Part shown: positions 1-50,291 of the stretch, in pieces
How the letters are laid out: every line of letters begins with the position of its first letter
Position numbering within the stretch: position 1 is the stretch's first letter
Virus record (IMG/VR): IMGVR_UViG_3300032046_000031
Coordinates: 1 to 57,107 of that record
Length of the DNA stretch: 57,107 bases
Source of the DNA: a virus
Taxonomy: Duplodnaviria > Caudoviricetes
Direction: 5' to 3' (one strand)
Notes under the pieces: generated by a model
Told to the model about the DNA's origin: nothing
Seen by the model: only the letters and a program-made list of their open reading frames with translations
The model's database searches: none
Translations under genes and position numbers: made by a program

Positions 1-127
1 AATGCTTCGGCTCCACAAAAAGGACAAGGCTTTAATTTTTTCTCCTCAATCTCTTTCATTTTCCCTCCAATGCTTTAATGGCGATGTTTTGCATCTCTGT
101 CGCTTTATTGCTATTCACCACACTTTC
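1..127. repeat. Terminal direct repeat (copy 1), identical to 56981-57107; circular genome / assembly overlap
   Basis: Exact 127-nt identity between the two ends; reading frames run continuously across the junction (the stop of ORF 56..256 overlaps the ATG of ORF 56380..57039). Confidence 0.95.
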
Positions 128-256
128 TAGGGCCTGCTTTAATTTCTCAATCTCCTTATCCTTAGTTTCGAGAGAGAAAAGAAGTATTTGAATATGCTCA
201 TCCGCCCAAAGCTCTCCCTTACCCAATCTCTTCTTAATCTCCTCAATCTCTTTCAT
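56..256 (-). CDS. Small hypothetical coiled-coil protein
   Basis: ORF track; ATGA overlaps with both neighbours; SD GAAGGAG. Confidence 0.6.
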   Translation of the reverse strand: MKEIEEIKKRLGKGELWADEHIQILLFSLETKDKEIEKLKQALESVVNSNKATEMQNIAIKALEGK

Positions 257-540
257 TTTAACTCCTTCTCTCTTCTCTCCAATTCTTCTAACAATCGGGA
301 TACCAAGACCCTTAGAAAAAATAATGCAGTTTTTCTTTGATAAAATAAATGTATCATTTCAATAAAACTATTCGCTAATTCAAATCCTGCTTGTCCTGCC
401 CTAATGGTCTTAGACTGCTTAGTCTCGCCCATCTCATCCTCCTTCGCTCCCCACTCAATTAACTCCTTAGTTGTCCCTTTGATGATCTTGGTCATTTTGC
501 CTCCTACTCTAAATGTAAACCATGCTTTTCTCCATACCAT
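253..540 (-). CDS. Hypothetical protein (true start possibly at 434 or 495)
   Basis: ORF track; internal SD-ATG pairs. Confidence 0.5.
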   Translation of the reverse strand: MVWRKAWFTFRVGGKMTKIIKGTTKELIEWGAKEDEMGETKQSKTIRAGQAGFELANSFIEMIHLFYQRKTALFFLRVLVSRLLEELERREKELK

Positions 541-731
541 CCTTCCTCATCTATCCATTTTTTAATCTCTGCCAATTCTTCCCTCAATCTCTTCATTTTT
601 TCCTGTTCCCTTCGACATCCAGCAACATAACCATTTAGAAATGGCCCCCAATAACAACTCTTTTCAGGAGTCTTGCGATCTGTTACAAAAACCTTTCTTG
701 CTTCTTTTTCCCATCTCTCTTGGTCTGTCAT
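504..731 (-). CDS. Hypothetical protein
   Basis: ORF with SD AAGGAGGA upstream. Confidence 0.6.
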   Translation of the reverse strand: MTDQERWEKEARKVFVTDRKTPEKSCYWGPFLNGYVAGCRREQEKMKRLREELAEIKKWIDEEGWYGEKHGLHLE

Positions 732-784
732 CTCAATCCTCCTTTTAGGCGATAGAGGGAAATCCGGTCGATGTCATCCCTCTA

Positions 785-958
785 TTATGGTTTGATATTT
801 TTCAAATTTAAAATTGTTATTCCTGAAATCCTGTCTGTTGCAGGATTATAACGGATCAAAACCGGAATATTCTTTTCATAGCAAATCGCAGGCTCCGCCT
901 TATCAAATGTTAAATAAAGCACATCAGCATGTTCATCATAATCACAAGTTACCCTCAT
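785..958 (-). CDS. DUF2283-like small protein
   Basis: Motif YDEHADVLYLTF...IRYNPATDRISGITIL is typical of DUF2283; start moved to MRVTCDY after SD GGAAGGA. Confidence 0.7.
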   Translation of the reverse strand: MRVTCDYDEHADVLYLTFDKAEPAICYEKNIPVLIRYNPATDRISGITILNLKNIKP

Positions 959-1457
959 ATTTAATCCTTCCCCCCGTACTTGTTTTTCCAATCAGCATAA
1001 TTTTACGAACTATATTGGGATACCTTTCAATATTGATTCCGACTTTTGCCATCGTTTCAAAGACATTGATCCCACAGGCTTCAGGGATCTCCAAAATTGT
1101 ATCTCCATGCTTATAAACAGCAAGAGCTTTTTTATTAAGTTTACTCCTTACTCCGTTCTGCCAATATAAAGGATTTCTGCATTGCCGATCTGTCCATAGT
1201 GGATGGAGTTGTTTCATCTTTTTTTTATGACCGACCAAATCAAATTCTTCGATTACTGCATACCAATGAGTCCACACTTTAGAGCTATCAAGAAAATCGA
1301 AATATGTTGCAGGGCAGGCCGGAAAGTTTGGACAACCCTTCGGATGACCAGGATATGGCAGTTTACACCACATTCCATCTCTCGCCCTTAAGTCGTAAAC
1401 CACTTTAGTAAGTTTAATCGCTTCTTCGACTTTATCGTGACCAAATAAATCTTTCAT
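942..1457 (-). CDS. DUF2284-like predicted metal-binding protein
   Basis: CKLPYPGHPKGCPNFPACP and PEACGINV motifs; start at MKDLFG (the longer track ORF runs into cassette A and is probably spurious). Confidence 0.65.
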   Translation of the reverse strand: MKDLFGHDKVEEAIKLTKVVYDLRARDGMWCKLPYPGHPKGCPNFPACPATYFDFLDSSKVWTHWYAVIEEFDLVGHKKKMKQLHPLWTDRQCRNPLYWQNGVRSKLNKKALAVYKHGDTILEIPEACGINVFETMAKVGINIERYPNIVRKIMLIGKTSTGGRIKYEGNL

Positions 1458-1485
1458 TTCACCGCCTGAATCCGTATATCTCTTG

Positions 1486-1677
1486 TTATATGGATTCATA
1501 TTCACTTCCATCGGCCCAGTATCCAAGTTCCATCGCCAGCAGTTCACAGATACAGACAAACGCTGGCTGTCCACATTCACAAATCGGATCGGGTTCGTCA
1601 TCTTGTTCCATTGCTCTGGTATTTTCATCAAACTGAGCTTTTAGTAATTCTTCTTTTGAGGGCCAGCGATTAAGCAT
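1486..1677 (-). CDS. Cassette A cargo: small Cys-rich protein (ICECGQPAFVCIC)
   Basis: SD GGAGG adjacent to the inverse core site; stop TAA lies in the GTTA core site at 1485. Confidence 0.7.
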   Translation of the reverse strand: MLNRWPSKEELLKAQFDENTRAMEQDDEPDPICECGQPAFVCICELLAMELGYWADGSEYESI

Positions 1678-1689
1678 AATAAAACCTCC

Positions 1690-1744
1690 ATATAACCAAT
1701 CAATCCAGCGGATCGCTATGCTCCCGCTGATTTCTACGTTATGC
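1690..1744 (+). repeat. attC site 1
   Basis: ATATAAC-CAATCAATCCAGCGGATCGCTATGCTCCCGCTGATTTCTAC-GTTATGC; imperfect palindrome of the classic attC type. Confidence 0.85.
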
Positions 1745-1879
1745 GAAAAGATATTCTTCCATCAATGCCCTTTCTTCGGCATTGTATCCACCTGGATATT
1801 CCCCTGTTTGTTCAAAATACTGGAGATCTCTTTGAAGCGTTGGTGAATCTATTTTTTCACACAATTCTTGATAATTCAT
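1739..1879 (-). CDS. Cassette B cargo: 46-aa acidic peptide MNYQELCEKIDSPTLQRDLQYFEQTGEYPGGYNAEERALMEEYLFA (not in ORF track)
   Basis: SD GGAGGTGA; stop TAA in the core site at 1738. Confidence 0.7.
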   Translation of the reverse strand: MNYQELCEKIDSPTLQRDLQYFEQTGEYPGGYNAEERALMEEYLFA

Positions 1880-1894
1880 GCTATCACCTCCTTC

Positions 1895-1978
1895 ACATAA
1901 CAAATTACTCAAGCCGACCGTGGATAGTCAGTTGCTATTCCATCCACAGTAGACAGCGGCTTAGTTCAGTCGTTATAT
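1895..1978 (+). repeat. attC site 2
   Basis: ACATAAC-AAATTACTCAAGCCGACC...GCGGCTTAGTTCAGTC-GTTATAT; closely resembles aadA-type attC (TAACAATTCATTCAAGCCGAC...GCGGCTTAATTCAAGCGTTA). Confidence 0.9.
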
Positions 1979-2203
1979 TTCCGCTTCCCAATTTGCTCTC
2001 TTTTTAATTTCCTCCTCGATTAATGGAAGAATCTTTTTGAGTTCTGCTATTCTTTGTTCAAAATGGGCAAGTAATCCATTGCCATCAATTAAAGCCTTTC
2101 TCCAGCCATCTAAGGTAAGATATCCATATTGATCTCTGGGCCAATGCCAACTATAATGCCACGATGAATCAATGATATTTGATAATTCATACTCTAAATC
2201 CAT
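1973..2203 (-). CDS. Cassette C cargo: 76-aa hypothetical protein (MDLEYELSNII...)
   Basis: SD GGAGGA; stop in the core site at 1972. Confidence 0.7.
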   Translation of the reverse strand: MDLEYELSNIIDSSWHYSWHWPRDQYGYLTLDGWRKALIDGNGLLAHFEQRIAELKKILPLIEEEIKKRANWEAEI

Positions 2204-2223
2204 TTCATCCTCCTGAAGTAGAA

Positions 2224-2306
2224 ATATAACCAATCACTCAAGATAAATCCCATCGCCTGAATATCCCCTTATCAGGGCAAAATGGTTTGTTAATCAATGG
2301 TTAGAC
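2224..2306 (+). repeat. attC site 3
   Basis: ATATAAC-CAATCACTCAAG...GCCTGA-loop-TCAGGGC...TTAATCAATG-GTTAGAC. Confidence 0.8.
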
Positions 2307-2426
2307 GGAATAACAAAAATCCCAACAAATTTCTTTGTGCCCAATAACTTCGCATTTATTTCTATGAAAAATATAGACACCTTCTGTTGAAGTTTGAGCT
2401 TGCCAAATAAAAGAGTAAAATAACAT
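2301..2426 (-). CDS. Cassette D cargo: 41-aa peptide (MLFYSFIWQAQ...)
   Basis: SD GGAGGA overlapping the inverse core site; stop in the core site at 2300. Confidence 0.6.
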   Translation of the reverse strand: MLFYSFIWQAQTSTEGVYIFHRNKCEVIGHKEICWDFCYSV

Positions 2427-2435
2427 AAATCCTCC

Positions 2436-2528
2436 GTCTAACAAATCACTCAAGAAAATCCTTTCAACTTCTTCGTCTCTGTTTAGCATATCAACTCCTT
2501 TCGCCGCTGCGTAGTTCAAGCGTTGTAA
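2436..2528 (+). repeat. attC site 4 (central stem degenerate)
   Basis: GTCTAAC-AAATCACTCAAG...GCGTAGTTCAAGC-GTTGTAA; the outer boxes are recognisable but central pairing is poor. Confidence 0.7.
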
Positions 2529-2739
2529 GGCTTACTTTTCCAGTCTCTGTTTTCGTGCTTCTAAGTCGGTGCCTGTCATTTTCTACCTCCATAAATTTGA
2601 TTAAAACTTTTCCCTTCCTCCTCACAGAGAGGGCAACTTGGAGCCCAATCTCTTCTCCCTGGCTGTCCCCTCCACATTTGGAGTTGCCAGATTAGACCAC
2701 AGCAAGACCATTCCATAAAGCAGAATCGATAGTAGGAGT

Positions 2740-2943
2740 TCATTCTTCTATCGCTTCCCCTGCAACACCTGTGATAGGTCGATTTCGATAGAAGTCTCGT
2801 TCTTCCCAAGTCTTAGAGAGACATTGAGCGTGCTGTTGTTTAAATTCATCAACTAAGACAACGACTTTGTCAGTTGATTCCGCAAATGGATCACCTTCAA
2901 CATTGAGAGTTGCTCCACAAACGCAATGATATGAAATTTTCAT
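2740..2943 (-). CDS. Small protein with CxCG motif
   Basis: SD AAGGAGGTGA; MKISYHCVCG...HAQC. Confidence 0.6.
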   Translation of the reverse strand: MKISYHCVCGATLNVEGDPFAESTDKVVVLVDEFKQQHAQCLSKTWEERDFYRNRPITGVAGEAIEE

Positions 2944-3001
2944 CTGGATTCACCTCCTTTCCTTTATTTAATCTGACCAAATATTTGATTGATCCTTGCC
3001 A

Positions 3002-4327
3002 TCATCCCCCCTCAAGTTTCTTCTTACTCTCCAACCACCATACATCATCAATCTCTACCCCAACTGCCAACCTGTCTAATTGTTTACAGGCAAGGGTGAA
3101 AGTCCCTCCCCCAAGAAAGGGATCAATCCCTCTCTCCTTCACTTGTGAGCAATTCTCAATCAGTTTCTTAATGATGGTAAGAGGCTTCTCTGTTGGATGA
3201 ACCTTTGTCTGCCCTGAAAGGATTGGATGCTCAAACGTTGAGAGTGCCTGAATGGTAGAAAGGGGACGAGGTGGATACCCCTTACTACAATAAAAGATTG
3301 GCTCATAATTGACAGGATAGGAGATGTGAGGTCTAAGGTTGAGAGCATTGTTCTTGATCCATAGGAGGGGAGTTGGGCATACCCAGAACCCAACTTCTTC
3401 TAACAATGCTCTCACCTCAGTATAACGAGCAATGGCAAAGAAAACATAGCAGTGTGATCCCTGTACCAACACCCTATACACCTCCCTCATAACTGGTTTG
3501 ATTACATTCTCCAATACCTTCTTCTCATCATTAAATTCCATCCCCTGCCTAACCTCCCCTCTGTTTGGGAAGGTCTCCTGCATATCATGAATCCCAATCC
3601 CATAAGGAGGGTCGGTGATGCAGAAGTTGAAACTCTCATCTGGAAACTTTGGCAGTTCAATGAGGGAGTCTCCTTTAATGATCTGAATAGGTTCCTCCCC
3701 ACTTTCCAACCTTGCCTCAGCAAATATCCCTGCAATGTCCCTCATAAACCCCAACTCAAACCCAACCTTCATTGCTCTTATTGCAGCTTCCTTCGTCTCT
3801 TTCTTTCCCAACTCTGGGTCGAGTCTGAGAGCCTTTGCAAGTTGGAGATGCTCTCTGATCGTCCCAAGCCCCTCACCAAGGAGTTCAGCAGTATCCTGTG
3901 TCCTCCATCCTCCAGACTTCTTCCCTGTCCATGTGATGTTACCAATTCGCTCTCTTGTCGTTCCGAATTTTTCTTGATAGAGTTCATGAAGTTGAAGCTC
4001 TCCTTCAACCTTTTCCTGCCAGGTTAAGTCTTCTCTGTGGATGTTCTCATAGATCTCAATAGCAAGTCTCTGCCAAAGATCAAGGTTTTCTTTGAGAATA
4101 TACTCTTTCTCAGTTAATTCTTCTTTACCAATCTCTTTGAGTGCTCGAAGTCGTCTTTCACCAACAAGAAGATATATTCCATCATCTCTCTTTTCAAGAA
4201 TTAATGGTTCAATGAGACCAACCTCTTTAATCGAATTAATCAACTCTTGATGTTTCTTCTCATCAAAGGTCTTTCGTCTGCGATCTGGGTCGATGATGAT
4301 GTCTGAGATCTTAATTTTGTCTGTCAC
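3002..4327 (-). CDS. ParB/Srx N-terminal domain fused to an N6A/N4C DNA methyltransferase (beta class)
   Basis: LINSIKEVGLIEPL...LVGERRLRA...ENIHREDL (ParB-N); TDPPYG, HPTEKP and DPFLGGGT MTase motifs; GTG start with GGAGG SD. Confidence 0.9.
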   Translation of the reverse strand: MTDKIKISDIIIDPDRRRKTFDEKKHQELINSIKEVGLIEPLILEKRDDGIYLLVGERRLRALKEIGKEELTEKEYILKENLDLWQRLAIEIYENIHREDLTWQEKVEGELQLHELYQEKFGTTRERIGNITWTGKKSGGWRTQDTAELLGEGLGTIREHLQLAKALRLDPELGKKETKEAAIRAMKVGFELGFMRDIAGIFAEARLESGEEPIQIIKGDSLIELPKFPDESFNFCITDPPYGIGIHDMQETFPNRGEVRQGMEFNDEKKVLENVIKPVMREVYRVLVQGSHCYVFFAIARYTEVRALLEEVGFWVCPTPLLWIKNNALNLRPHISYPVNYEPIFYCSKGYPPRPLSTIQALSTFEHPILSGQTKVHPTEKPLTIIKKLIENCSQVKERGIDPFLGGGTFTLACKQLDRLAVGVEIDDVWWLESKKKLEGG

Positions 4328-4649
4328 GCTTGGCCCCTCCTTTAGGTTCAACCTTTGCTGGAGGTGTTTGAGGAGGAGTGGTTTGCTTAAAGAGATCCCA
4401 CTTAGCAATCTCATTGATCATAGTTTGCTGGCAGGCATTAAAGAGGGTTTGTTTTCTTAACTCTTTCTCATTCTTTGGCATGATGAGATTGATGTGGGTG
4501 TCAATGGTTTCTGTAATCATCTGTTTCTGCTTTCCAATAGTAATGCCACCAACGAAGCCAGCAGAGACACCAGAAATAAAAATACAAATAATCCAGATAA
4601 GAAGATGATAACTTAATTCAGTTTTCTTTGGTGTTTGTTCTTCACTCAT
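4311..4649 (-). CDS. Hypothetical membrane-anchored protein
   Basis: One hydrophobic N-terminal segment; SD GGAGG. Confidence 0.6.
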   Translation of the reverse strand: MSEEQTPKKTELSYHLLIWIICIFISGVSAGFVGGITIGKQKQMITETIDTHINLIMPKNEKELRKQTLFNACQQTMINEIAKWDLFKQTTPPQTPPAKVEPKGGAKRDRQN

Positions 4650-4650
4650 C

Positions 4651-4977
4651 TTACCCTCCTATCCTACTAATAAATTTTAATGCCTCAATTGATGTTACAA
4701 TCTCGATTCCATTCTCCAAAGCAAATTTACACTCTGTGATTGCTCCCTCACTTTCACCAGCTAAGAGAAATAAAACATCACAACAGCTAAGCCATTTAAG
4801 ATCCATCTTCATCCAGAACTCTTTTGGATGATGATGAAAAAGATGCCAGAAATGAAAGAGATGTGGAACGAATGGAATATGCCCAAGGTTGGCGATTTTA
4901 TCTGCAACTTCAATCACCCTCTTGACATTACAGGCAACATCCCCTTTTGTGTAAGGACCAGTAATATAGACTTTCAT
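4651..4977 (-). CDS. DUF4406 / nucleoside 2-deoxyribosyltransferase-like protein
   Basis: KVYITGPYT...PFVPH...WLSCCD...GESEGAITE motif. Confidence 0.75.
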   Translation of the reverse strand: MKVYITGPYTKGDVACNVKRVIEVADKIANLGHIPFVPHLFHFWHLFHHHPKEFWMKMDLKWLSCCDVLFLLAGESEGAITECKFALENGIEIVTSIEALKFISRIGG

Positions 4978-5611
4978 GCTACTACCCCTCCTGGATTATT
5001 CCCACCTTTAATTGGTCTCACATTACTGAGATCCCTTGCAGGAACTATCCCTGTTGTAGCTTGGATGTAAAGGTTGATAAGACTTTCATCTTTTACATCA
5101 TACATTAGATGTCTTAAAGCAGGGTTGAGCTGCTCAATCTTATCAGGGGTTCCTACGAGAGCTTTAAGCCCCATCACTTCTCTCCCCTGAGAATCTTGAC
5201 CTGAAATTACAACTCTTGGTTTCTGTAAAATCTCATCTTCATACTGCCCAATAAGGATAAGACCACCGATGAAGATTATTTTAAGTTCCATTATAGGATT
5301 AACCTCCTTCCAATCTGCTATTGTTAGAGCAACTGCTTCATCCCAAATTTTTCTTCTTCTGGCATCACCCATCTTATCCTTCTTTCCGAATCCAAAAAGC
5401 TGGGTATAGAGTTTTACCATCTCCAATATAGTGTGTTACAAAATCAAGGGAAACATGCTGTCCTAAAAACCTTACAGATAACCATTGCATTACCCCAGTT
5501 TCCTCAATGGTCTCTGGATGGAGAATAACACAGCCAGGCGTAATGGAATCAATTTTCATCTCAACCTCCTTTATAATAAAATTGAGAGACCAACAGAGAG
5601 AGCTAAATTGT

Positions 5612-5920
5612 TTACAGAATGCCTTCTGGAATCTCTACACCAGCCTTCTTGAGAGTCTCTGCGAGTCTTGCTTGCAGTTCTGGCGTGAGCTTCCCAGTAG
5701 CCTTTGCAGCGATGATCATCTTTCCAATTGACAGAGCACCTGTAGCAGGTTTTCTCAACTTATTGATTGCATTTGTCTTCCACTGGGCATTGAAAACTGC
5801 AAGAGCCTCCTTCTCTCCCCCAGCGAGTTTCTGGCAATCTGCCCAGGTGTCTGCTTGCTTGCATGTTCCTTTCTGATCTGGTTGCCCCTTACTCTTGGCA
5901 ACGATCTGTTCGTCTTTCAT
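5612..5920 (-). CDS. Hypothetical protein (true start MKDEQIV)
   Basis: SD AAAGGAGGA; the upstream extension in the ORF track overlaps a structured RNA. Confidence 0.7.
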   Translation of the reverse strand: MKDEQIVAKSKGQPDQKGTCKQADTWADCQKLAGGEKEALAVFNAQWKTNAINKLRKPATGALSIGKMIIAAKATGKLTPELQARLAETLKKAGVEIPEGIL

Positions 5921-5999
5921 AGAGTTAGTTCCTCCTTTAAATGCTGAAGTTACGTTGAAAGTTAAAGTGGTCTCTCTGTTAATCTCTCTCAAGTTAAGG

Positions 6000-6107
6000 C
6001 TGTCTCGTTGAAGGATTCGAACCTTCTTTGCTATGGCAGTAGTCCTGATGCAGCTCTCCATAGTCTCGTTGCCTCAAGTGTTTTCACCAGAACACCACAC
6101 GAGACAG
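6000..6107 (-). ncRNA. tRNA-like RNA (acceptor-like stem, D-arm and T-arm; no canonical anticodon arm)
   Basis: CTGTCTCGT/ACGAGACAG closing stem; GTGTT-CTGGTGAA-AACAC D-like arm; GAAGG-TTCGAAT-CCTTC T-arm. Confidence 0.55.
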
Positions 6108-6116
6108 TAATTTATA

Positions 6117-6149
6117 CTGAGTATAGGTCGAACTTCGACCTTAGCTGAC
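6117..6149. promoter_or_regulatory. Dispersed palindrome copy 1 (CTGAGTAT-AGGTCG-aactt-CGACCT)
   Basis: One of six intergenic or gene-end copies. Confidence 0.75.
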
Positions 6150-6653
6150 CATTCCTCCTCCACCTCTCTTCTTTGTAATAATTCTGACACGATTGTCCTT
6201 GATGGGTTCAGGATCATTCTCTGTTCCCTTTCGGGTTACCTGATCAACCTTTACCACCAATGGTCTCCCCTGAAATACCTCCTTATCAGGAAGCTGTGTT
6301 CCTTGGATCTGCATCCCCGTTCCACTGATTATATTGACGATGGTGAATGTGGCTGTATAATCCCACTGTTTGGTATCAGGATCAATCCACGGTAGTTGTG
6401 CATATACGAACAGATTGCGATTCCCCTTTACTTCAAGGTCAGGTCTGTTTATGATCCTTAAGGTAAATTTCCACTGAGGTCTTCCTGACTGTTGGACAGG
6501 TGAATCATCAACCTTATCAATCACCGTTTCATAGGTTCCATCAGGAACCAACGGTGGCCTTGCTAACTTCTCCAAATCTTCAAACCCTATTCCGATGTCT
6601 ATTGGGCACATATTCTCTTTCCTCCTTTTCTCTTTCAGATTTTTCAAACTCAT
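6141..6653 (-). CDS. DUF669-like single-stranded DNA-binding (OB-fold) protein; probable start MCPIDIG
   Basis: PLVPDGTYETVIDKV...SGRPQWKFTLRI pattern; located near the Sak4-like ATPase. Confidence 0.65.
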   Translation of the reverse strand: MSLKNLKEKRRKENMCPIDIGIGFEDLEKLARPPLVPDGTYETVIDKVDDSPVQQSGRPQWKFTLRIINRPDLEVKGNRNLFVYAQLPWIDPDTKQWDYTATFTIVNIISGTGMQIQGTQLPDKEVFQGRPLVVKVDQVTRKGTENDPEPIKDNRVRIITKKRGGGGMVS

Positions 6654-6959
6654 CTTTCTCCTCAGCCCTCAACTGCCCTGATGATTTCCCATCCATTCTG
6701 ATGATGGGAGCACCACAGGGACATTTGTTTCTTACAATGGTTGAGGGTGCTGGGAAGTGTCCATTGCTGCACTCAAACTCACTCACAAGGTCACCTCCTT
6801 TCTCATCTCAGCTTCTCCATCTCCCCTTTGATGTGTCTCTCTTCCTTCCTTAAGCTCTCCAACTTCTTCTCCTCCTCCTCGATTGCATCCTGATAGCCTT
6901 CAAGGAGCTTCTGCCAATATTCTAAGGCTTCTGTTCTCTTCATCCTTCCTCACCTCCCT

Positions 6960-7811
6960 TCACTCACAGGACATTTGACCTCTGTAAATCTCTGCAAAGT
7001 TTGGTTTGATCTTGATTGGCAGGTCATCAAACGATCTCTGCCTGATGATCTTCAAGAACATCTGCGGAGAAGTCTCAAACCAATATTCCTTCTTCCCTGT
7101 CATCGTTGACACTGAAACATAGTAGATGTCATCGATCATACTTAATACGATCCCAGGAAGTTTCTTCCCATAGAGTAAGATGGTCTCCTGAATCTTCCCA
7201 ACAATCTCATCCTTCTCTGACTCAACATGGGTAGTAAGGATGAAATCAAAAGGGATGTGACAGCAGACATCTACAATCTCTCTGATCTTCTCAATAGCCA
7301 ACCCATAAGTATATTGGCTGGTTCCTTTCCCTGTATGTCCTGCAAGGTTGACCTCTCCGTGTAAAACATACCATTGTAACCCAGTAAGGGAATCCGCTGC
7401 AAAGTGGCACACCCCTCTCTCCTTATACGCTGCCACCTTACTTTCCATATCATTAATGTCCTGTGCAAAATCAAAGAAGATTTTAGAATCAAAAGAGGTA
7501 AGCATTCCAACGTTGAGAGGGGTTGCATATTCAGAGTAGTCAATAACCAAAATCTCATCCTTCTTCAAGATGTCATCCTTCTGTGCAAACCACTCTCTGG
7601 ATGTTTTGTAATGTTTAAGCTTCTTCGGTCTCCTTCCAACTTTCTGTGCTTTGAGTAAGGCATCTCCTTCCCTCTCTAAACATTTCCAACCCCCAGAGTC
7701 AAAATTGAAATCTATTAGACCTCCTGATAATGTCTCAAAACTTGTGGTTTTGCCACCTCCTGGCTCACCAATCAGAACTATATTTTTTTTACTCATCTTT
7801 TTACCTCCCAA
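6960..7811 (-). CDS. AAA_24 / Sak4-like recombination ATPase
   Basis: Walker A GEPGGGKTT, DFNFDSG, ADSLT and ILTTH motifs. Confidence 0.75.
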   Translation of the reverse strand: MGGKKMSKKNIVLIGEPGGGKTTSFETLSGGLIDFNFDSGGWKCLEREGDALLKAQKVGRRPKKLKHYKTSREWFAQKDDILKKDEILVIDYSEYATPLNVGMLTSFDSKIFFDFAQDINDMESKVAAYKERGVCHFAADSLTGLQWYVLHGEVNLAGHTGKGTSQYTYGLAIEKIREIVDVCCHIPFDFILTTHVESEKDEIVGKIQETILLYGKKLPGIVLSMIDDIYYVSVSTMTGKKEYWFETSPQMFLKIIRQRSFDDLPIKIKPNFAEIYRGQMSCE

Positions 7812-8007
7812 TGTCTTGATAGATCAGCAAGAACATGAGCTACCGCATCTGTGATTCTTTCAAGAGCAATTGTAGTAGCAGGGATGTACTGACTGATTAT
7901 TTTGTAAGCATCATTTACTGCTTTAAGTTTTACCATCTCTTGCTCTGCTATAAATGCTTGTGTTTTTAAATAAGCAATTTGATCCTCTAACTGTTTAATT
8001 GTCTTTT

Positions 8008-25571: not shown

Positions 25572-27891
25572 ATGGCTTTAACTTATGATGATTTGGATGC
25601 TGCTGTTAAGAAAAAGTATCTTCCAAAGGCTATTGAGCAGATCTTTATAGGTAATGCTATCTTGACAAAACTCTTAGCCAAGAGTCAAGTTGTCTTTGAT
25701 AGTGGATCAAAGATTGCTCAGCCTGTCATTTATGGAAAGCTGGCAAGCGGTTCTTACTCAGGAATGGATACTTTTGATATTGGTTACAAGAAGATTGCAA
25801 CCTTGGCTGAGTGGAATTGGAAGAACCATCAACTCTTAAATTAGAGGATAGTGGCATGATTGATCTTGACTATGCTTATATTGCTGGATTTTTTGATGGA
25901 GAAGGAAGTATCTTGATTGCTAAGAGTGATCGATCTAAATTCAGACCAAATCCATCTCCTCTGTGGAGTTTAAGGATCACCATTTCAAATCAGCATCTTC
26001 CTGTACTTCAGTTGATGCATCAAGAGTTTGGTGGTGGTATGTATTCACAGACATCTGGAAAGAGTGGTGTTTATAGATTGATCCTTCAGAACAATCAAGC
26101 TGAGAATTTTCTCCGAAAAATTCAGTCTTACGTTAAGGTTAAAAATGATCAAGTAGAGTTGGCTCTTGCTTTTCAGGATCTCCGAAAGGGACGATCCTCA
26201 CGAGTTCGATTAAGTGAAGATGAGAAGACTCTATATGATTCAATCATGTTTGTGATGAGAAACCTTAATCATAAACTCAGTCAAGACTTTCTTGAAAAAC
26301 TGGGTGAATTCAGGGAAGGTCCGACTCATACCGTAAGGATGAAGGATAACCCTGAGCCAAGCTCCTTGAATGGTAAATATGTAGAGGAGAAGGTGCAGAG
26401 ACTAACGCTTGAGGAACCTACCAATAACAGCGACACGAGTGCCCAGCCCGTAAGGGATGAGATAGTCCGACCTTCATAGTAATATGAAGATGCTTTGGAT
26501 AAAGAGCCAAAGCGGTAACAAAGTGTATGTCAATGTCACCATCGCTGGTGACGATCTTGCTAAAACAGAAGGTGATGAGAAGATCATTGGTCTCCTTCAG
26601 GTTAGGATGGAAAATGCTACCCTCACCGCACATGATGACTTCGTGACCATGTTTGTTGGTGATGGGACAGGGAACTCATCTAAGGACTTCGATGGTGCTC
26701 TTAATGGATCTGATGATGGTACCATCTACGATTCCTATGGTGGAATCTCCAGAGCGAGTAATGTCTGGTGGAAGGGTTATGTGAACTCAACAGGTGGAGC
26801 AGCCACCCTTGACCTTATCAACCAAACCATCGGATCGACTACGATTGCTCAGAAGAAATGTGATCTTGCTTTCACCACACAGTCAATCTATGATAAGCTC
26901 TGGGCAAGGGTCCAACCTCAACAGAGATTTCTTGATAGTAAGAGCAAGCTTGCTGAGGTTGGTTTTACAGGGATTAATTTTAATGGTCATATGGAGATCA
27001 TCGTTGATAACCATATCCCTTCAGGTTACATGCTCGGTTTCAATACTGATTACTGGAAGTTGGTTCTCAATAGGAAGAGAAATTTCTATTGGACTGCGGA
27101 GAAGAACCCTGTTGATGCTGATGCCTTAATGAATTAGGGCCATGATGAGGAAACTTATCAATGAATAACACTGCTATATGCGAGGAACTCCTTAAACCTT
27201 CAGATACCCAGAATGGTAAAAATTCTGAAGCTGGGACAATTCGCAGGGAAGATATCCAATTAGAGTTAGATCTTGCTTGGCTTGCAGGTTTAATTGATGG
27301 AGAAGGTTGCTTAACTACTCATTTTTGGAATGATAAGAAAGCTCCTACCAGACCTAAAACTCTTATTTGCTCTTTGGTTGTTTCAAACTCAAATAAATTG
27401 GCTTTGGAAAAAGCACAGCAAATTTACGAATCTATTGGTGTAAAAAGCCATCTTATTATGGGTAAGAGAGAGAACAGAAAGTTCTGGGTTGGTAGTTTAT
27501 CTATCCGAGGGAATTATAATTTATCAACAATTATTCCTCGGTTGCTTCCTTATTTGGTAATAAAGAAGGATCAAGCAATCTCTCTATTGGCGATTGTGTA
27601 TAGAAAAGTAACACTTGGAGAAAAGACGAATGGTAAAAGAGGCTTATCTCTTACCTATGATGAATTTATTCTAACACAAATAAAAAAGCTGCATGAACTA
27701 AAGCAAGAAGGAAGATATGATATCCCCTCAACGACTATACGCAGTGCCCTTTTAGATGTGGAAGGTGATGATATAGTCTGCTCTGCATAGTAATATGCAG
27801 TTAACAAAAGGATGTCAGACAGATGTTAACGATGGGAAATCTCATTTGCATCCAACCAAGAACCAGTTTTATCCTTTCAGGGTTAACATAA
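25572..27891 (+). CDS. Major capsid protein, spliced from 3 exons (25572-25829, 26526-27126, 27812-27891; 312 aa)
   Basis: Joined exons give an uninterrupted frame: ...AEWNWKNH|YVNVTIAGDDL...PVDADA-Y-VRQMLTMGNLICIQPRTSFILSGLT*. Confidence 0.9.
25830..26525 (+). mobile_element. Group I intron 1 in the MCP gene
   Basis: P1 ccaU.Gugg; core AATTCAGGGAA / AACCCTGAGCCAAG / GTGCAGAGACTA / GAGATAGTCC; terminal G. Confidence 0.9.
25856..26479 (+). CDS. Intron-encoded LAGLIDADG homing endonuclease 1
   Basis: YAYIAGFFDGEGSI; ATG 25856 with SD GAGGA. Confidence 0.9.
   Translation: MIDLDYAYIAGFFDGEGSILIAKSDRSKFRPNPSPLWSLRITISNQHLPVLQLMHQEFGGGMYSQTSGKSGVYRLILQNNQAENFLRKIQSYVKVKNDQVELALAFQDLRKGRSSRVRLSEDEKTLYDSIMFVMRNLNHKLSQDFLEKLGEFREGPTHTVRMKDNPEPSSLNGKYVEEKVQRLTLEEPTNNSDTSAQPVRDEIVRPS
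27127..27811 (+). mobile_element. Group I intron 2 in the MCP gene
   Basis: P1 gccU.Gggc; P3 CACTGC/GCAGTG; ATGCGAGGAA / AATTCGCAGGGAAG; TCAACGACTA / GATATAGTCTG; terminal G. Confidence 0.9.
27161..27790 (+). CDS. Intron-encoded LAGLIDADG homing endonuclease 2
   Basis: LAWLAGLIDGEGCL; LLPYLVIKKDQA. Confidence 0.9.
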   Translation: MNNTAICEELLKPSDTQNGKNSEAGTIRREDIQLELDLAWLAGLIDGEGCLTTHFWNDKKAPTRPKTLICSLVVSNSNKLALEKAQQIYESIGVKSHLIMGKRENRKFWVGSLSIRGNYNLSTIIPRLLPYLVIKKDQAISLLAIVYRKVTLGEKTNGKRGLSLTYDEFILTQIKKLHELKQEGRYDIPSTTIRSALLDVEGDDIVCSA

Positions 27892-45595: not shown

Positions 45596-47800
45596 ATGTC
45601 ACCTTTATCTTGGCTCAAAGCTCCATTTAGCCTTGCAGGTAGGGTAGGGAAAGCAGTGGAGATGGCTCCAGGGGTGATTAGTATGATTCACCCTGAGCAG
45701 ATCCTTGCTAAGTCTCCAATCACGAAGAAACTCTTTGCTCTTACTGTTGATGAGGAACGAGCAGCCAATCTTCTCAGACGAAAGTTTACTGGGGAAGTTG
45801 ATCGTATTGTTAAAAAATATGGGATCAATACTGAGGAAAGAGCAAATCAATTTCTTAACACTCTTGAGTTTCATAACTATAAAGGTCGTCTCCCTGATGC
45901 TCAAGAGATGTCTCAGATGCCTAAATGGACTTTTAATGCAGCAGCTGAGCATTTAAGAAGCATTGAAGATCCAATCTGGCTGGAGTATAATAAGCTGAAA
46001 GATCCCAAGACCTATGAAGGGATTCTTAAAAAGTATGATCTCATTGCTGATCCTACTACTATGGTCAAACCTGAGATTGGCTATGTCTCAGGTCACTTCA
46101 CTCACTTCCCTGTGAAATCTTACACCAACTTCCTAACTGATGAGATCAACCGCACAGAGTCAATGCTCAAAGGTATCCCTGTTGAAGATCCAAACTTCTT
46201 CAACTATAAAGCACATGTAGCAGAAATGAAAAAGAGTTTAGATAAATATTCCAACATCGATACCTCCCTCAATGCTGTTCGTTTCAAACAACTCCCAAAA
46301 GGAGGAGTCTTTGGCCCTTTTGATGAAGCACGTCAGACTCAAAAGATGTGGGGCTATCGCAAAGACTACCAAGATGTCATGCACGAATACGTTGATAAGG
46401 CAGTTAGGAAGATCATGCTTGATCGTTACATGCCAGTTGCTAATGAGTTGGTCAAAGCTGAACCAAATGCTGCTCTCCGCCAGTATGCCTTTGATTACGT
46501 CACTGCTCAGAGAGGTGCCCTTACATCTAAGAGTAGAATCTTCTTCAATGAGTCCCTCGCTCAACTCTTCCCCGATCCTGAATCTGGCTACCGTAACATC
46601 GCTAAGGGAGTTGACTTTGCTACCCGTTTTCAATACCTCTCAAAGATTGGTCTAAGTTGGTTCCGCTTTCCATTTGTGAATGCAACTCAGCCCATTCTTA
46701 CCCTCTACCCAATGGTGGGAGCAAAGAATCTTCTCCTTGCTTACGGGAAAGATATTACCAACCCTAAACTTTGGCAGGAAGCAAAGGATGTGGGTGTTAT
46801 CTTTGAGATGCAACTAAGAAAGGGATTGGCTGAAGCTCTTGGGAGAGCCCCAAGAGAGAGTTGGTTGTGGAAAACTGAGAAGGTTATAAGTTGGCCAGCT
46901 TCCATCTCTGAGGAATTAAACAGAGTTGTAACCTACGCTGCTGGAAAGAGACAAGCAGCAGAGATGGGATTGCAAGGGCAAGAAGTGGTGGATCATGCAA
47001 TCAAACTTGTCAACCGTACCCAATTCCTTTACAGTAAGGCTGGGATGCCTTTGATCATGAGTAAGTCTCCAGCTGGAAGGTTGCTCTTTCAATTCCGTAC
47101 CTTCACCTCAAACTACATCAACTTTCTCACCCAACTTTGGAGAGAAGGGAATTACGCTGGTTTCGCCAGAGCCTTAGGATCACTTGGAGCACTCTCTGGA
47201 ACCGCTGCCATCCCATTTGGACTCTGGGAGGGGACACGGAAAGGCTTACTCAGAAATGCTGGGATCGATATTGGAGAGTTTAATCCTGTTGAGACCCTTA
47301 CTGAAAGAGCAGGGTTCTCCCCTCCACTCGATCTTGGCCAATCCCTTGAACCCTTTAATATCCCAGGTGACGTCACTCAGATGTTTGGCCCTTCCATTGG
47401 CCCTGTTGCAAAACTTCTCTTTGATTGGATGAGAAAGCCTGAGGAAGGGAAAGAGCATCTCAGACGATTTGGTGAATCTTATGCTGGACCTCCTATTGTT
47501 AGAGCAGTTAAGGGGTTGGGATTTCCAACTGTGACCACAGAACCAACCAAGACTATGCCTAAAGGAAGGGTGATTGGACAGAGATCTCTTGCTGAAGCAA
47601 TGTTCATGCGAGGACCTCTTGAATCAACCAGACGAAAGTATATGACATTGATGGCAAATGCAATGGCAGGGGGGAGGGAGGATCTTTCTCGTCAATATAT
47701 GCAAAGGATGAGACAGATGGGAGTTCAATTTAGTGAACAGGATTTTGGGCAGGTGAGACAGATGGCAAGTAAGTTGAAAGGGGTACCAGCTGTACAATGA
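45596..47800 (+). CDS. Large internal virion / ejection protein
   Basis: AIKLVNRTQFLYSK...LLFQFRTF motif typical of large ejection/polyvalent proteins. Confidence 0.65.
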   Translation: MSPLSWLKAPFSLAGRVGKAVEMAPGVISMIHPEQILAKSPITKKLFALTVDEERAANLLRRKFTGEVDRIVKKYGINTEERANQFLNTLEFHNYKGRLPDAQEMSQMPKWTFNAAAEHLRSIEDPIWLEYNKLKDPKTYEGILKKYDLIADPTTMVKPEIGYVSGHFTHFPVKSYTNFLTDEINRTESMLKGIPVEDPNFFNYKAHVAEMKKSLDKYSNIDTSLNAVRFKQLPKGGVFGPFDEARQTQKMWGYRKDYQDVMHEYVDKAVRKIMLDRYMPVANELVKAEPNAALRQYAFDYVTAQRGALTSKSRIFFNESLAQLFPDPESGYRNIAKGVDFATRFQYLSKIGLSWFRFPFVNATQPILTLYPMVGAKNLLLAYGKDITNPKLWQEAKDVGVIFEMQLRKGLAEALGRAPRESWLWKTEKVISWPASISEELNRVVTYAAGKRQAAEMGLQGQEVVDHAIKLVNRTQFLYSKAGMPLIMSKSPAGRLLFQFRTFTSNYINFLTQLWREGNYAGFARALGSLGALSGTAAIPFGLWEGTRKGLLRNAGIDIGEFNPVETLTERAGFSPPLDLGQSLEPFNIPGDVTQMFGPSIGPVAKLLFDWMRKPEEGKEHLRRFGESYAGPPIVRAVKGLGFPTVTTEPTKTMPKGRVIGQRSLAEAMFMRGPLESTRRKYMTLMANAMAGGREDLSRQYMQRMRQMGVQFSEQDFGQVRQMASKLKGVPAVQ

Positions 47801-48690
47801 TCTACCCTGCTGACTCCCATCTTGAACTCCTTCTCTGTCCTCCAACCTTTCTCTCAACGGAGATCATCAACAACCGTTGGATGAAGAAGATGTCTCCAGA
47901 GGAGAGGCAGGTCAACCGTGATAAAGCTGTCTCTCAATTTCACCTTATGTATAGCTTATTCAGTCAGGATGCTATGGTTTATCTCCTCCCACCAAAGAAT
48001 GGTTTGCAAGACCAAGTTTACATCACAAATGCAGGGATGTGTCTCCCGCATCTTGAAAAGACTGTCATCCTTGCAAATTTCAAAGCTGAAGGACGACCTG
48101 GGGAGGAAGATGAGTTAGCTTGGTTTATCTCAAAGATGGGATATGCAACCTTCAAGCCTCCTTTCTTCTTTGAAGGAGAGGCAGAGTTAAAGTGGGTGAG
48201 GGACAACATCTACATTGGAGGGTATGGGATTAGGACACATCTCAAAGCTTTAGAATGGATCGAAGCTAACTTTGGTGCAAGAATTATCAAGATTGAAGAG
48301 ACCGACCCCCTCACCTACCATCTTGACTGTAACATCTTCCCCCTTTCTAATACAAAGATCATCTTTAATGAAAATCTGGTGAAAGATCCACAGTTAAGGG
48401 AGATGGAACAGATTGCTGAGCTTATCCCTGTGACTAAGAAGCAGGCTCAATTCTCCATTACAAATAATCTGAGAGTTGGCTCCATTGTGTATTCAGCTAC
48501 AGGGATCAAAGAGATGAAACTATCTGATGAGGAATACCCATTTGAGAAGGATAAGGATGAGAAATTAGAACAGATTTGTAGAGCTGCTGGGTTGGAGTTG
48601 ATCTTTATCAACCTATCAGAGATGTATAAATCTGGTGCAGCTTTAAGCTGTTGTATATTTCACCTTAACTATACGAACTTTTTTGATTGA
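47797..48690 (+). CDS. Amidinotransferase / arginine deiminase-dihydrolase (pentein) family enzyme
   Basis: LQDQVYITNAG, FEGEAE, YHLDC and YKSGAALSCC (catalytic Cys). Confidence 0.85.
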   Translation: MIYPADSHLELLLCPPTFLSTEIINNRWMKKMSPEERQVNRDKAVSQFHLMYSLFSQDAMVYLLPPKNGLQDQVYITNAGMCLPHLEKTVILANFKAEGRPGEEDELAWFISKMGYATFKPPFFFEGEAELKWVRDNIYIGGYGIRTHLKALEWIEANFGARIIKIEETDPLTYHLDCNIFPLSNTKIIFNENLVKDPQLREMEQIAELIPVTKKQAQFSITNNLRVGSIVYSATGIKEMKLSDEEYPFEKDKDEKLEQICRAAGLELIFINLSEMYKSGAALSCCIFHLNYTNFFD

Positions 48691-49414
48691 TATGCTACCT
48701 TTACAAGACTTTCTCCAACAATCTGAAACACAGCAAATTAAGAGAGAGCTCCCTCTCAAACTCTACGAGGTTGATTTCAATCGTGATCCCAACCGATCAA
48801 TCTACCATGACCAGTCTACCTTCCTCTCCCCTGCAGATGGTGTAATCGTCTATGCTAAGGTTGTTCACCCTAAAGAGAACATGATCGAAGTTAAAGGGAT
48901 GAATTATACTATTGAAACCCTCATGCAAGAGACCATGAAGTACCCATGTTTGATCATTGGCATCTTCATGACCGCTCTTGACGTTCACATCAATCGCATC
49001 CCTACTAATGGCTTCATCAAACACACAAAACTCCCTCCTTTAAAGGTAGCTAACCTCTCAATGAGGGAGGTTGAAAAGGATATCCTAAAGAGGCTCAATC
49101 TTGATTATTCGCACATGGAGTATATGCTCTTCAATGAGAGAGTTAAGAATCGTATCTATGCCCCCAATCTCAAACAACCTTATTACATCTTACAAATCGC
49201 TGACTTCGAGGTGGATGTCATCGCTCACTTTGGAGACTCTGATGATTATTACACACAGGGAGAAAGGTTTAGTGTGGTCAGGATGGGAAGTCAGGTTGAC
49301 CTTATTATCCCCTTTATCAACCCTAAACTGCAATTTGAATCTCTCCTTAATAACTGCCTTCTCTATCATGTTGAAGCAGGAAAGGATAGGTTGGTAAGAA
49401 TAAATGGAATTTGA
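48683..49414 (+). CDS. psd: Phosphatidylserine decarboxylase-family pyruvoyl proenzyme
   Basis: FNRDPNR, SPADG, IGIFMTALDVHINRIP and RMGSQVD (G-S autocleavage site). Confidence 0.85.
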   Translation: MIDMLPLQDFLQQSETQQIKRELPLKLYEVDFNRDPNRSIYHDQSTFLSPADGVIVYAKVVHPKENMIEVKGMNYTIETLMQETMKYPCLIIGIFMTALDVHINRIPTNGFIKHTKLPPLKVANLSMREVEKDILKRLNLDYSHMEYMLFNERVKNRIYAPNLKQPYYILQIADFEVDVIAHFGDSDDYYTQGERFSVVRMGSQVDLIIPFINPKLQFESLLNNCLLYHVEAGKDRLVRINGI

Positions 49415-50291
49415 CGATAGGTTAACCACCATCGTTTATTTTGCTGAGACCCTCCCCTCTCGCTATCCAGAGGTGTTTCTCCCAGCAAAGACTAACCTTG
49501 AATCAAATGGGATTAAGGTTAAACTGATCAAAGGAATAGAAAACATTTGGTGTCGAGATTATCTGCCAATTCAGGTGGGTGACCACTTTGTGAAATTCAT
49601 CTATGCCGATTCCAACTTTGAACATCGAAAGCCCCCAAAGATATCTTGTTGGGATGGATTTGCTGTTCCCTCTATTATCTCACCAATTATCTTAGATGGT
49701 GGTAACGTTGTAAGAGGATTTGGAAAGACCTTCATCACAGAGAAAGTGCTTAGAGACAACGTAAGGGTGAAACCTCGTGCAATTATTCACAAACTTTCAT
49801 CCCTTCTTGACTCAGAGATAATCCTCCTCCCAATCGAACCTGGAGACAATCTTGGTCACTCAGATGGGATTGTTAAGTTTATGGATGAGAAGACCATCCT
49901 CATCAATGACTATTCAAGCATCTTTGAAAAGGACAAGAAGTTCATTGAGTATGATGAGAAACTTAGAAAGCTTCTCTCTAAGAAGGGGTTTGAAATTGAG
50001 ACTCTTCCCTTTGCCTATGGTGACTGGGATTGGAATATGTCAGAGAAAGAGTTTCGTAAGCAATATCCTTTCGCTGACGATTTCAACCCAGGATTTGGGT
50101 ATTATATCAATTTCTTATTGGTAAGAGGGGTAATCCTTCTTCCTACGATGGGAATCAAAAAAGACTTTGATGTAGTGAGGAAGATGAAATTTCTCTATCC
50201 ACATTACAATATTGTTGCAATTGATTGCTCCCATCTTTCATTTGAGGGTGGGCTGATGAATTGCATCTCATGGAATATAATGGAGGTGTAA
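49404..50291 (+). CDS. aguA: Agmatine deiminase / Porphyromonas-type peptidylarginine deiminase family
   Basis: IWCRDY, LDGGN, GHSDG, YINFL and GGLMNCIS. Confidence 0.88.
   Translation: MEFDDRLTTIVYFAETLPSRYPEVFLPAKTNLESNGIKVKLIKGIENIWCRDYLPIQVGDHFVKFIYADSNFEHRKPPKISCWDGFAVPSIISPIILDGGNVVRGFGKTFITEKVLRDNVRVKPRAIIHKLSSLLDSEIILLPIEPGDNLGHSDGIVKFMDEKTILINDYSSIFEKDKKFIEYDEKLRKLLSKKGFEIETLPFAYGDWDWNMSEKEFRKQYPFADDFNPGFGYYINFLLVRGVILLPTMGIKKDFDVVRKMKFLYPHYNIVAIDCSHLSFEGGLMNCISWNIMEV

Follow-up and report, generated by a model that had tools for sequence, protein, structure and literature searches.

Integron cassettes in the early operon of a complete 57-kb phage genome and their probable movement by a host integrase

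The virus genome IMGVR_UViG_3300032046_000031 (57,107 nt; the whole of this stretch of DNA is called the window below) carries an array of four gene cassettes at positions 1485–2528. Integrons are gene-capture devices of bacteria, and the array is built as integron cassettes are: each of the four units consists of one small open reading frame (ORF; 41–76 aa) and one attC site, and the four sites are packed into 1.05 kb. Two or more attC sites close together and no integron integrase define a cluster of attC sites lacking an integron integrase (CALIN), and this is what the window holds at 1485–2528. The phage is podovirus-like and of lytic type, with a complete genome. Its cassettes are probably moved in trans by the integron integrase (IntI) of the host, which would give unrelated phages a common pool of small genes.

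Complementary cassette ends

A first-pass annotation, made from the letters of the window, had listed four inverted pairs, each formed by the two ends of one cassette. All four were recovered in place. The pairs 1485–1494/1687–1696 and 1738–1747/1892–1901 match at 10/10 and 9/10 positions, respectively; 1972–1987/2215–2230 matches at the first 10/10 (16 nt at 88%) and 2300–2309/2433–2442 at 10/10. Judged by eye, the mismatch in the second pair (cassette B) would pair as G-U on the minus strand. Beyond the common GTTA/TAAC, 23 of the 24 variable positions are complementary between own partners, compared with a mean of 2.6/6 for non-partners. When the window was pooled with the six cassettes of a second viral array (L202), the value was 52/60, which was reached in 0 of 200,000 re-pairings. 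The two feet of each hairpin, one at the end of a gene and the other at the start of the following gene, matched by eye at only 5–7 of 10 positions. Own-end complementarity of this pattern is what a circular element leaves behind when its opening point is fixed at the hairpin foot; a simple intergenic stem-loop does not leave it. It is also visible in an authentic array beside IntI in Vibrio maritimus. The annotation had taken reciprocal complementarity as the footprint of circular cassettes, and this logic holds under the re-pairing test and at the natural joints described below.

The four sites also share the motif AACMAATYAMTCMAG. It has four exact matches in 57 kb, all on the plus strand, at 1694, 1899, 2228, and 2440, and the sole further match needs two mismatches. 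Because the motif was derived from these very sites, its weight lies in the clustering of the matches and not in their count.

Natural variants in sediment contigs

The stretch is present in seven sediment runs, one of which may be its source. Assembled Logan contigs of four of the other runs (X2–X5) were aligned to window positions 1–6000. In a 1106-nt contig of run X2, positions 614–1484 are followed directly by 1738–1902, so that cassette A (253 nt) is exactly gone. This joint has 165 letters on its shorter side and five letters (GTTAT) in common, too few for an assembler artefact at k = 31. Run X3 gave the same joint, 1484 to 1738, and a second one, 1484 to 1972, at which cassettes A and B are both gone; with 25 letters each on the shorter side, the X3 joints are weak. 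Cassettes were also found outside the array. Cassette A stands alone in a 309-nt X2 contig, both ends of which are unaligned beside it. In a 476-nt X5 contig, positions 213–450 correspond to window 1738–1975, that is, to cassette B, and an 18,315-nt X4 contig carries 2294–2518, that is, cassette D. Loose ends, where other sequence takes over, start directly past the cores at 1740/1741, 2309, and 2518. Stretches of the window that X4 and X5 leave uncovered were given no weight. Neither an excised circle nor a back-joining joint was among the findings, and contigs are by nature unable to reveal one. The recombination points had been placed at G|TT in the first-pass annotation; the natural joints 1484 to 1738 and 1484 to 1972 and the ends of cassette D all lie at the predicted points.

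Resemblance of the sites to attC

On the top strand, the textbook attC site begins with R'' (RYYYAAC) and ends with R' (G|TTRRRY). All four sites of the window read xxxTAAC ... GTTxxxx, and cassette D has the textbook cores GTCTAAC/GTTAGAC. The cores ATATAAC, ACATAAC, GTTATAT, and GTTATGC are one Y/R position off the textbook form, and the same cores occur in authentic attC sites beside IntI. Further in, L''/L' boxes follow after unpaired spacers of about 5 nt, and one extra base stands on the 5' arm in top-strand orientation (the 3' arm of the bottom strand). The extra base and the 5–6 nt spacers are seen in sites 1 and 2, which read AATC[C]AGCGG/CCGCT-GATT and ACT[C]AAGCCG/CGGCTT-AGT; sites 3 and 4 fit in part. 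The V. maritimus array beside IntI (L209) has 12 sites of the form xxxTAAC-AAATT-GyT[C]AAGC ... GC-TTArC-AAGGC-GTTAxxx, with ATATAAC/GTTATAT among their cores. Window sites 2–4 correspondingly read TAAC-AAATT/AAATC/CAATC-ACT[C]AAG, with the extra C placed as in V. maritimus. Across 11 phage sites, 86.9% of the cells pair, compared with 26–45% for slid partners, the structure having been derived from the same sequences.

Two covariance models were built. Model R1, our own and not that of IntegronFinder, comprises 15 attC sites of Vibrio and Alteromonas adjoining IntI genes above the TIGR02249 (NCBIfam) cut-off. It was run on the window and L202 (66 kb, both strands, filters off). The best match in these 66 kb was window 1895–1978 on the plus strand (30.3 bits, E = 3.8e-5), followed by window 1690–1744 on the plus strand (19.8 bits, E = 0.017) and L202 3465–3519 on the minus strand (19.7 bits); three further L202 sites had E values of 0.7–2.2. 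Authentic attC sites outside the training set scored 36–44 bits, and the three attC sites of Tetrasphaera phage TJE1 scored 29.3–35.0 bits. The first-pass annotation had marked four attC-like sites and expected an attC covariance model to return three or four. R1 found two of the four in the predicted orientation: 1690–1744 and 1895–1978 were returned exactly, and 2224–2306 and 2436–2528 were missed by both models. In sites 3 and 4, the R''-spacer-L'' motif is present and the G|TT is usable, and we read them as degenerate attC sites whose G|TT was nevertheless used.

As a reverse test, a second model, R2, was trained on 11 sites, all of them from phages. It scored attC 1, one of its training members, at 69.2 bits and attC 2, which is not among them, at 27.8 bits. 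In four of five bacterial genomes checked (G106, G300, G249, and G151), R2 matches adjoin IntI genes on the expected side and strand. These bacterial sites read xxxTAAC-5 nt-AyTCCAGCGGA...CCGCTGA...GTTA, like attC 1. Matches were obtained in 40/121 genomes of Desulfobacterota, in 36/121 of Gammaproteobacteria (the class of G013; this tally includes the unpublished genome G226, which no other claim uses), and in 30/52 genomes of the family of G012.

Folding of the bottom strands gave z scores of −1.36 (−7.6 kcal/mol) for attC 1, −3.05 (−12.5 kcal/mol) for attC 2, −0.08 for attC 3, and +0.20 for attC 4. The six L202 sites gave −2.77, −2.89, +0.41, −0.83, −3.18, and −1.50, and five authentic sites −2.73 to −4.64. 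By sequence, by structure, and by two reciprocal covariance models, the sites are of the attC kind. The array differs from a complete integron: it has no intI, and promoter-like sites are at chance level (for attI, no model search was made). It also differs from hairpin elements of the IS200/IS605 or repetitive extragenic palindromic (REP) type, as there is no PF01797 match and the site anatomy fits attC instead.

Cassettes shared between phages

Over 231 nt, cassette D and positions 2969–3199 of L202 are 95.7% identical. This locus belongs to a viral record (G006; 66,439 nt, rated 85% complete) with its own six-cassette array. The homology stops at window positions 2294 and 2524, the neighbours differ, and the ORF D proteins are 97% identical. 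Otherwise, the window and G006 have only six high-scoring segment pairs with a total of 832 nt. In five of the G006 cassettes, 5–6 of the 6 variable end positions are complementary, and in one cassette 3/6. Exact matches to an 18-mer of attC 1 revealed more arrays, in L217 (seven sites or more), L219, L220, and L221/L224, so that arrays of the same attC family occur in 4–5 more viral contigs. Six viral records hold different cargo between homologous attC sites, and what is alike between the arrays is the attC sites and cassette D only. No tyrosine recombinase was found in G006–G011, all of which are fragments. A genome-level R2 scan of G006 returned nothing at E ≤ 1, though cmsearch on the same DNA does match.

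The attC site that follows cassette D in G006 (L202 3187–3245, plus strand) has TAAT for TAAC and misses about 9 nt of the arm before GTTA; it looks damaged. Among the 12 viral loci with the 18-mer, six were rejected as attC sites because they belong to an unrelated conserved gene. In these six (L216, L218, L222, L223, L225, and L226), the 18-mer lies in an apparently coding stretch and has no hairpin partner; its presence there is a coincidence or a relic.

Further searches concerned the surroundings of the array. With the neighbouring methylase as query, five viral and 18 metagenome loci of 30–84% identity were found. Upstream replication genes are common to all four relatives checked for gene content; none of the relatives has cassettes A–D, the motif, or a model match. 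A blastn search of window 1–8000 against phage records gave no match, and site 2 had only three chance-level matches (E = 9) among plasmids. Among the matches listed for the 16-mer CTTGAGTRATTKGTTA, all were single; they lie at no fewer than 120 loci of genome contigs and at 58 of viral contigs, which is about chance level. One of these matches (L179) is the G006 array, and another (L081), in which R2 finds no site, led to genome G012, an uncultured member of the Desulfobacteraceae. G012 has two integron integrase genes above the cut-off (C304:1002–1943 and C337:858–1787), one of them with an in-frame TAA, and 10 matches to the phage-site model at E ≤ 1.

Cassette anatomy and inverted layout

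The features of the array are listed in Table 1. The attC top strand is the plus strand, as judged from the strand of the R1 matches, the arm with the extra base, and the hairpin side of the natural joints.

Table 1. Coordinates and anatomy of the cassette array in the window
Feature	Position	Strand	Description
Array left end	1467–1491	+	core G|TTATAT, G at 1485; used by both natural deletions
Cassette A	1486–1738	+	253 nt; ends complementary 10/10
ORF A	1486–1677	−	63 aa; GGAGG 7 nt ahead of ATG; stop TAA in core TAA|C
attC 1	1690–1744	+	55 nt; ATATAAC - CAATC - AATC[C]AGCGG ... CCGCT-GATT - TCTAC - G|TTATGC
Cassette B	1739–1972	+	234 nt; ends complementary 9/10
ORF B	1739–1879	−	46 aa; GGAGG before ATG 1879–1877; stop TAA in core
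attC 2	1895–1978	+	84 nt; ACATAAC - AAATT - ACT[C]AAGCCG ... CGGCTT-AGT - TCAGTC - G|TTATAT
Cassette C	1973–2300	+	328 nt; ends complementary 10/10, 16 nt at 88%
ORF C	1973–2203	−	76 aa; stop TAA in core; orphan protein
attC 3	2224–2306	+	degenerate; ATATAAC CAATC ACTCAAG (R''-spacer-L''), R' G|TTAGAC; L boxes pair poorly
Cassette D	2301–2522	+	222 nt; ends complementary 10/10
ORF D	2301–2489	−	62 aa from ATG 2489–2487 inside attC 4; stop TAA in core
attC 4, array right end	2436–2528	+	degenerate; GTCTAAC - AAATC - ACTCAAG ... CGTAGT - TCAAGC - G|TTGTAA

The cassettes join at G|TT after positions 1485, 1738, 1972, 2300, and 2522. The joint at 2300, in attC 3, is one end of the shared cassette D. 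Neither end of the array has a full hairpin; at the left end, a degenerate partner at 1467–1478 is 92% complementary to 1487–1498. The 3' arm of attC 4 is 77% like that of attC 2, and the L202 copy of attC 4 has a better L'. All four ORFs end with a stop TAA within the word TAAC and are preceded by GGAGG or AAGGAG. None of the cargo ORFs belongs to a Pfam or PHROG family. ORF A has ten metagenomic homologues with 65–92% identity. The only database match of the ORF C protein is itself, and nothing was found for it in viral contigs. ORF D may alternatively start at ATG 2426–2424, after GGAGG, and would then code for 41 aa.

The longer form of ORF D starts in its own attC site (window 2433–2500, minus strand), where LSDLL is the translation of the conserved arm CTTGAGTGATTTGTTA. 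Another ORF, at L202 4130–4200 (plus strand), opens with a comparable start module, AAAGGAGTTGATATGC, followed by ...LNDLL. Some phage cassettes thus seem to use attC as coding sequence.

In all four cassettes of the window, the ORF is antisense to the attC top strand, a feature that the first-pass annotation had not remarked on. Of 21 phage cassettes in six viral records, 19 have their longest ORF antisense to attC, compared with 0 of 15 bacterial intervals beside IntI (Fisher p = 2.4e-8). The ORF is likewise sense to attC in the V. maritimus and Paraglaciecola arrays, in TJE1, and in three larger intervals of Desulfobacteraceae contigs. The phage cassettes are also smaller: their median size is 260 nt, whereas detected bacterial attC sites lie 1092 nt apart in the median, and some of these bacterial intervals may hold more than one cassette. 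Since the ORFs lie on the minus strand, attC precedes the ORF in the direction of transcription, the Shine–Dalgarno sequence directly follows R'', and the R' core supplies the stop TAA (TAA|C).

It is conceivable, and we put it forward tentatively, that lytic phages of anoxic sediments keep a cassette pool of their own, with cassettes of about 260 nt and the ORF antisense to attC, which host integrases shuffle among unrelated phages. If so, a cassette would be expressed only inside a phage operon and would be silent, antisense to the cassette promoter Pc, when parked in a bacterial integron; host integrons would then be possible silent stores of phage genes. The recombinogenic bottom strand would be the sense strand, displaced by transcription, and it would be the lagging-strand template where genes point with the replication fork. 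What the inverted layout means, be it silence in the host integron or exposure of the bottom strand by transcription and lagging-strand synthesis, is a matter of speculation.

The phage genome

The window is the whole virus record, has direct terminal repeats, and is classed as 100% complete by the collection. Genes on the minus strand, from 1 to ~16,000 and from ~50,300 to the end, form the replication/early block, in which the array lies. According to a domain search, this block codes for a family A DNA polymerase fused to UDG, a DUF3987 primase/helicase-like protein, a PD-(D/E)XK nuclease, an AAA_24 ATPase, a DUF669 protein, a ParB-N/N6_N4 methylase, and a Lar-like protein. The plus-strand block codes for a portal of the P22/SU10 type, an SU10 adaptor, and an SLT lysozyme. 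ORFs A–D lie downstream of the methylase gene (4414 to 3002, minus strand).

That the genome encodes no tyrosine recombinase was confirmed, with 0 matches to PF00589 across the whole of this record, classed as complete with direct terminal repeats. Neither PF00239 (serine recombinase) nor PF01797 (Y1 transposase) has a match in the window, and none of the 38 window ORFs of at least 150 aa contains a recombinase domain. No tRNA genes were found in the phage. The sole match in an Rfam scan of the window, Rfam being without an attC family, was a group I intron.

The gene downstream of the array (942–1499, minus strand) has its longest reading from ATG 1499, within cassette A. Because this ATG is gone in the natural form without cassette A, the true start is more likely ATG 1457–1455, giving 171 aa. 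The 185-aa protein of the longest reading has no match in viral contigs.

Other features lie apart from the array. The group I intron (26227–26489, plus strand; RF00028, 83.5 bits) probably interrupts a late gene. A LAGLIDADG endonuclease ORF (25811–26479) overlaps it, and a second one (27161–27790) lies ~700 nt downstream. At 47797–50291 (plus strand), three neighbouring genes code for proteins with DDAH-like amidinotransferase, phosphatidylserine-decarboxylase-like, and agmatine deiminase (PAD_porph) domains, the last with 470 homologues at E ≤ 1e-10, most of those listed being metagenome proteins; the trio could be a polyamine or base-modification module. Two genes are fusions: 53512–55881 (minus strand) joins a family A DNA polymerase to an N-terminal domain of the UDG superfamily, and 3002–4414 (minus strand) joins a ParB-N domain to an N6/N4 DNA methylase.

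Mechanism and alternative explanations

We infer that the phage uses the IntI of its host. In a host cell making integron integrase, the attC bottom strands would fold out of the single-stranded DNA of the replicating phage; the bottom strand here is the sense, non-template strand. IntI would excise cassettes as circles by attC × attC recombination, and the circles could re-enter at an attC site in the same phage, in a co-infecting one, or in a host integron. Accessory genes of very small size would in this way be pooled among unrelated phages. Entry of the first cassette may have taken place at a non-att site, a route that has been described for bacteria (10.1101/2022.09.11.507474).

Several observations weigh against the reading of the array as a whole. 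As for the phage and its host, no host and no IntI have been linked to the phage, and R2 matches are about equally common in Desulfobacterota and Gammaproteobacteria. As for the sites, both models miss attC 3 and attC 4, whose folding is no more stable than that of shuffled sequence, and z scores of −2.7 or lower are reached by only 4 of 10 phage sites, compared with 5 of 5 authentic ones. The R2 match to attC 2 went unreported with filters off, and R2 finds no long attC sites of the Vibrio cholerae repeat (VCR) type in L208–L211 at E ≤ 0.1 and none of the TJE1 sites. The cores of three cassettes (ATATAAC, ACATAAC) depart from RYYYAAC, and the antisense ORFs depart from the usual layout, in which attC lies downstream on the same strand. 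All natural variants, moreover, are assembled contigs and not reads, the X3 joints being short-sided. Finally, the array is absent in the relatives with the same upstream replication genes, so that they define neither an empty site nor cassette boundaries. Of the outcomes that the first-pass annotation had named as refuting its reading, none of those examined came about.

Four other explanations were weighed. The sites may be attC-like hairpins that are worked by an unrecognised phage protein or by another hairpin or tyrosine recombinase of the host, such as Xer. The lack of an IntI tied to phage or host would fit this, as would the many phage ORFs without a family and the inverted ORF layout, which differs from that of bacterial cassettes. 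None of the seven viral records with such arrays encodes a tyrosine recombinase, the window being the only complete one. Against this stand features that are specific to IntI substrates: an R box, spacers of 5 nt, an L box in which the same arm carries the extra base, and crossover at G|TT. Sites of the same family adjoin IntI genes in bacteria, and neither a Y1 transposase nor a serine recombinase is encoded. We consider an enzyme other than IntI unlikely.

The array could also be a fossil, its once-captured cassettes now being immobile, with the variants formed by slippage or microhomology deletion between short GTTAT repeats. Sites 3 and 4 are indeed degenerate, and the deletion joints have 5–7 common letters. 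Yet the two deletions, the ends of cassette D, and the contigs with A or B alone all break at R' cores and at no other short repeat. The loose ends indicate that in other runs the same attC is followed by other cassettes, and six viral records carry different cargo between homologous attC sites. A fossil array appears very unlikely.

If the hairpins were regulatory elements of the phage, that is, terminators, RNase III sites, or promoter-stem-loop modules, the genes between them would have been shuffled by homologous recombination. The hairpins do sit between a stop codon and the next Shine–Dalgarno sequence within one operon, RNA would fold alike, and on the mRNA strand the single mismatch of pair B would pair as G-U. 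Promoter-like and terminator-like sites, however, are at chance level (8 vs. 10.4 expected and 4 vs. 3.6 expected, respectively), and homologous exchange between repeats would not make the two ends of each gene complementary. The breakpoints lie at the hairpin foot with at most seven letters in common, and the model of authentic attC sites matches the sites; regulatory hairpins are highly improbable as an explanation. Chance similarity without biological meaning, for which the low complexity of the AT-rich cores and nothing else can be cited, is already refuted by the re-pairings, the matches to both models, and the existence of natural variants.

Comparison with known systems

Promoter-stem-loop "mobile regulatory cassettes" have been reported in T4-type phages. 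They resemble the present array in that small accessory ORFs lie in a plastic early region between repeated stem-loops. In contrast to them, the window has no promoter signal above chance, its exchange takes place at a fixed point at the hairpin foot, its gene ends are complementary, and its sites match attC models.

Chromosomal integrons (V. maritimus L209; G106, G249, G151, and G300) have in common with the array the R''/R' cores, the 5-nt spacers, the own-end complementarity, an L box whose 5' arm, in top-strand orientation, has one base more, a variable centre, and conserved attC sites with unrelated cargo. They differ in that the window is without intI, attI, and Pc (for attI, within the limit given above) and the phage cassettes are smaller, with inverted ORFs.

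Loot et al. describe single cassettes of bacterial genomes that were inserted outside att sites, at attG sites (preprint 10.1101/2022.09.11.507474). Such insertion would be a possible route for a first cassette into an att-free genome such as a phage backbone; in the present array, neither end has a full hairpin. Unlike those single cassettes, the window has a four-cassette array with rearrangements of the attC × attC type.

A further close system is that of Qi, Rajabal, Ghaly, Tetu, and Gillings (2023; PMC9892861). They screened 10,705 phage genomes of NCBI, described CALINs in virulent phages, and carried out IntI1 assays in E. coli, in which two of the three TJE1 attC sites recombined with IntI1. 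Their phage CALINs and ours are alike in being integrase-less attC arrays with small cargo genes in integrase-free phages, and TJE1 scores in R1 (29.3–35.0 bits) much as window site 2 does (30.3 bits). Unlike the four antisense ORFs of the window, those of TJE1 are on the same strand as the attC top strand and terminate inside attC, which is the canonical layout. Since CALINs in virulent phages have thus been described, the kind is already known. In the literature covered, including parts of PMC9892861, neither the gain, loss, and sharing of cassettes in wild phages nor a phage pool of inverted mini-cassettes was found in print. New are the natural gain and loss of cassettes, their sharing between phages, and the inverted small-cassette design. 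To the known kind, the present locus adds signs that cassettes come and go in wild phage populations and pass between phages with almost no other common DNA, and its cassette design separates the phage pool from the bacterial arrays examined. Should this design prove functional, it would have a bearing on the way in which phages exchange small early genes, many of which serve anti-defence or host takeover, and on how cassettes are made; both questions can be tested with a handful of defined sites.

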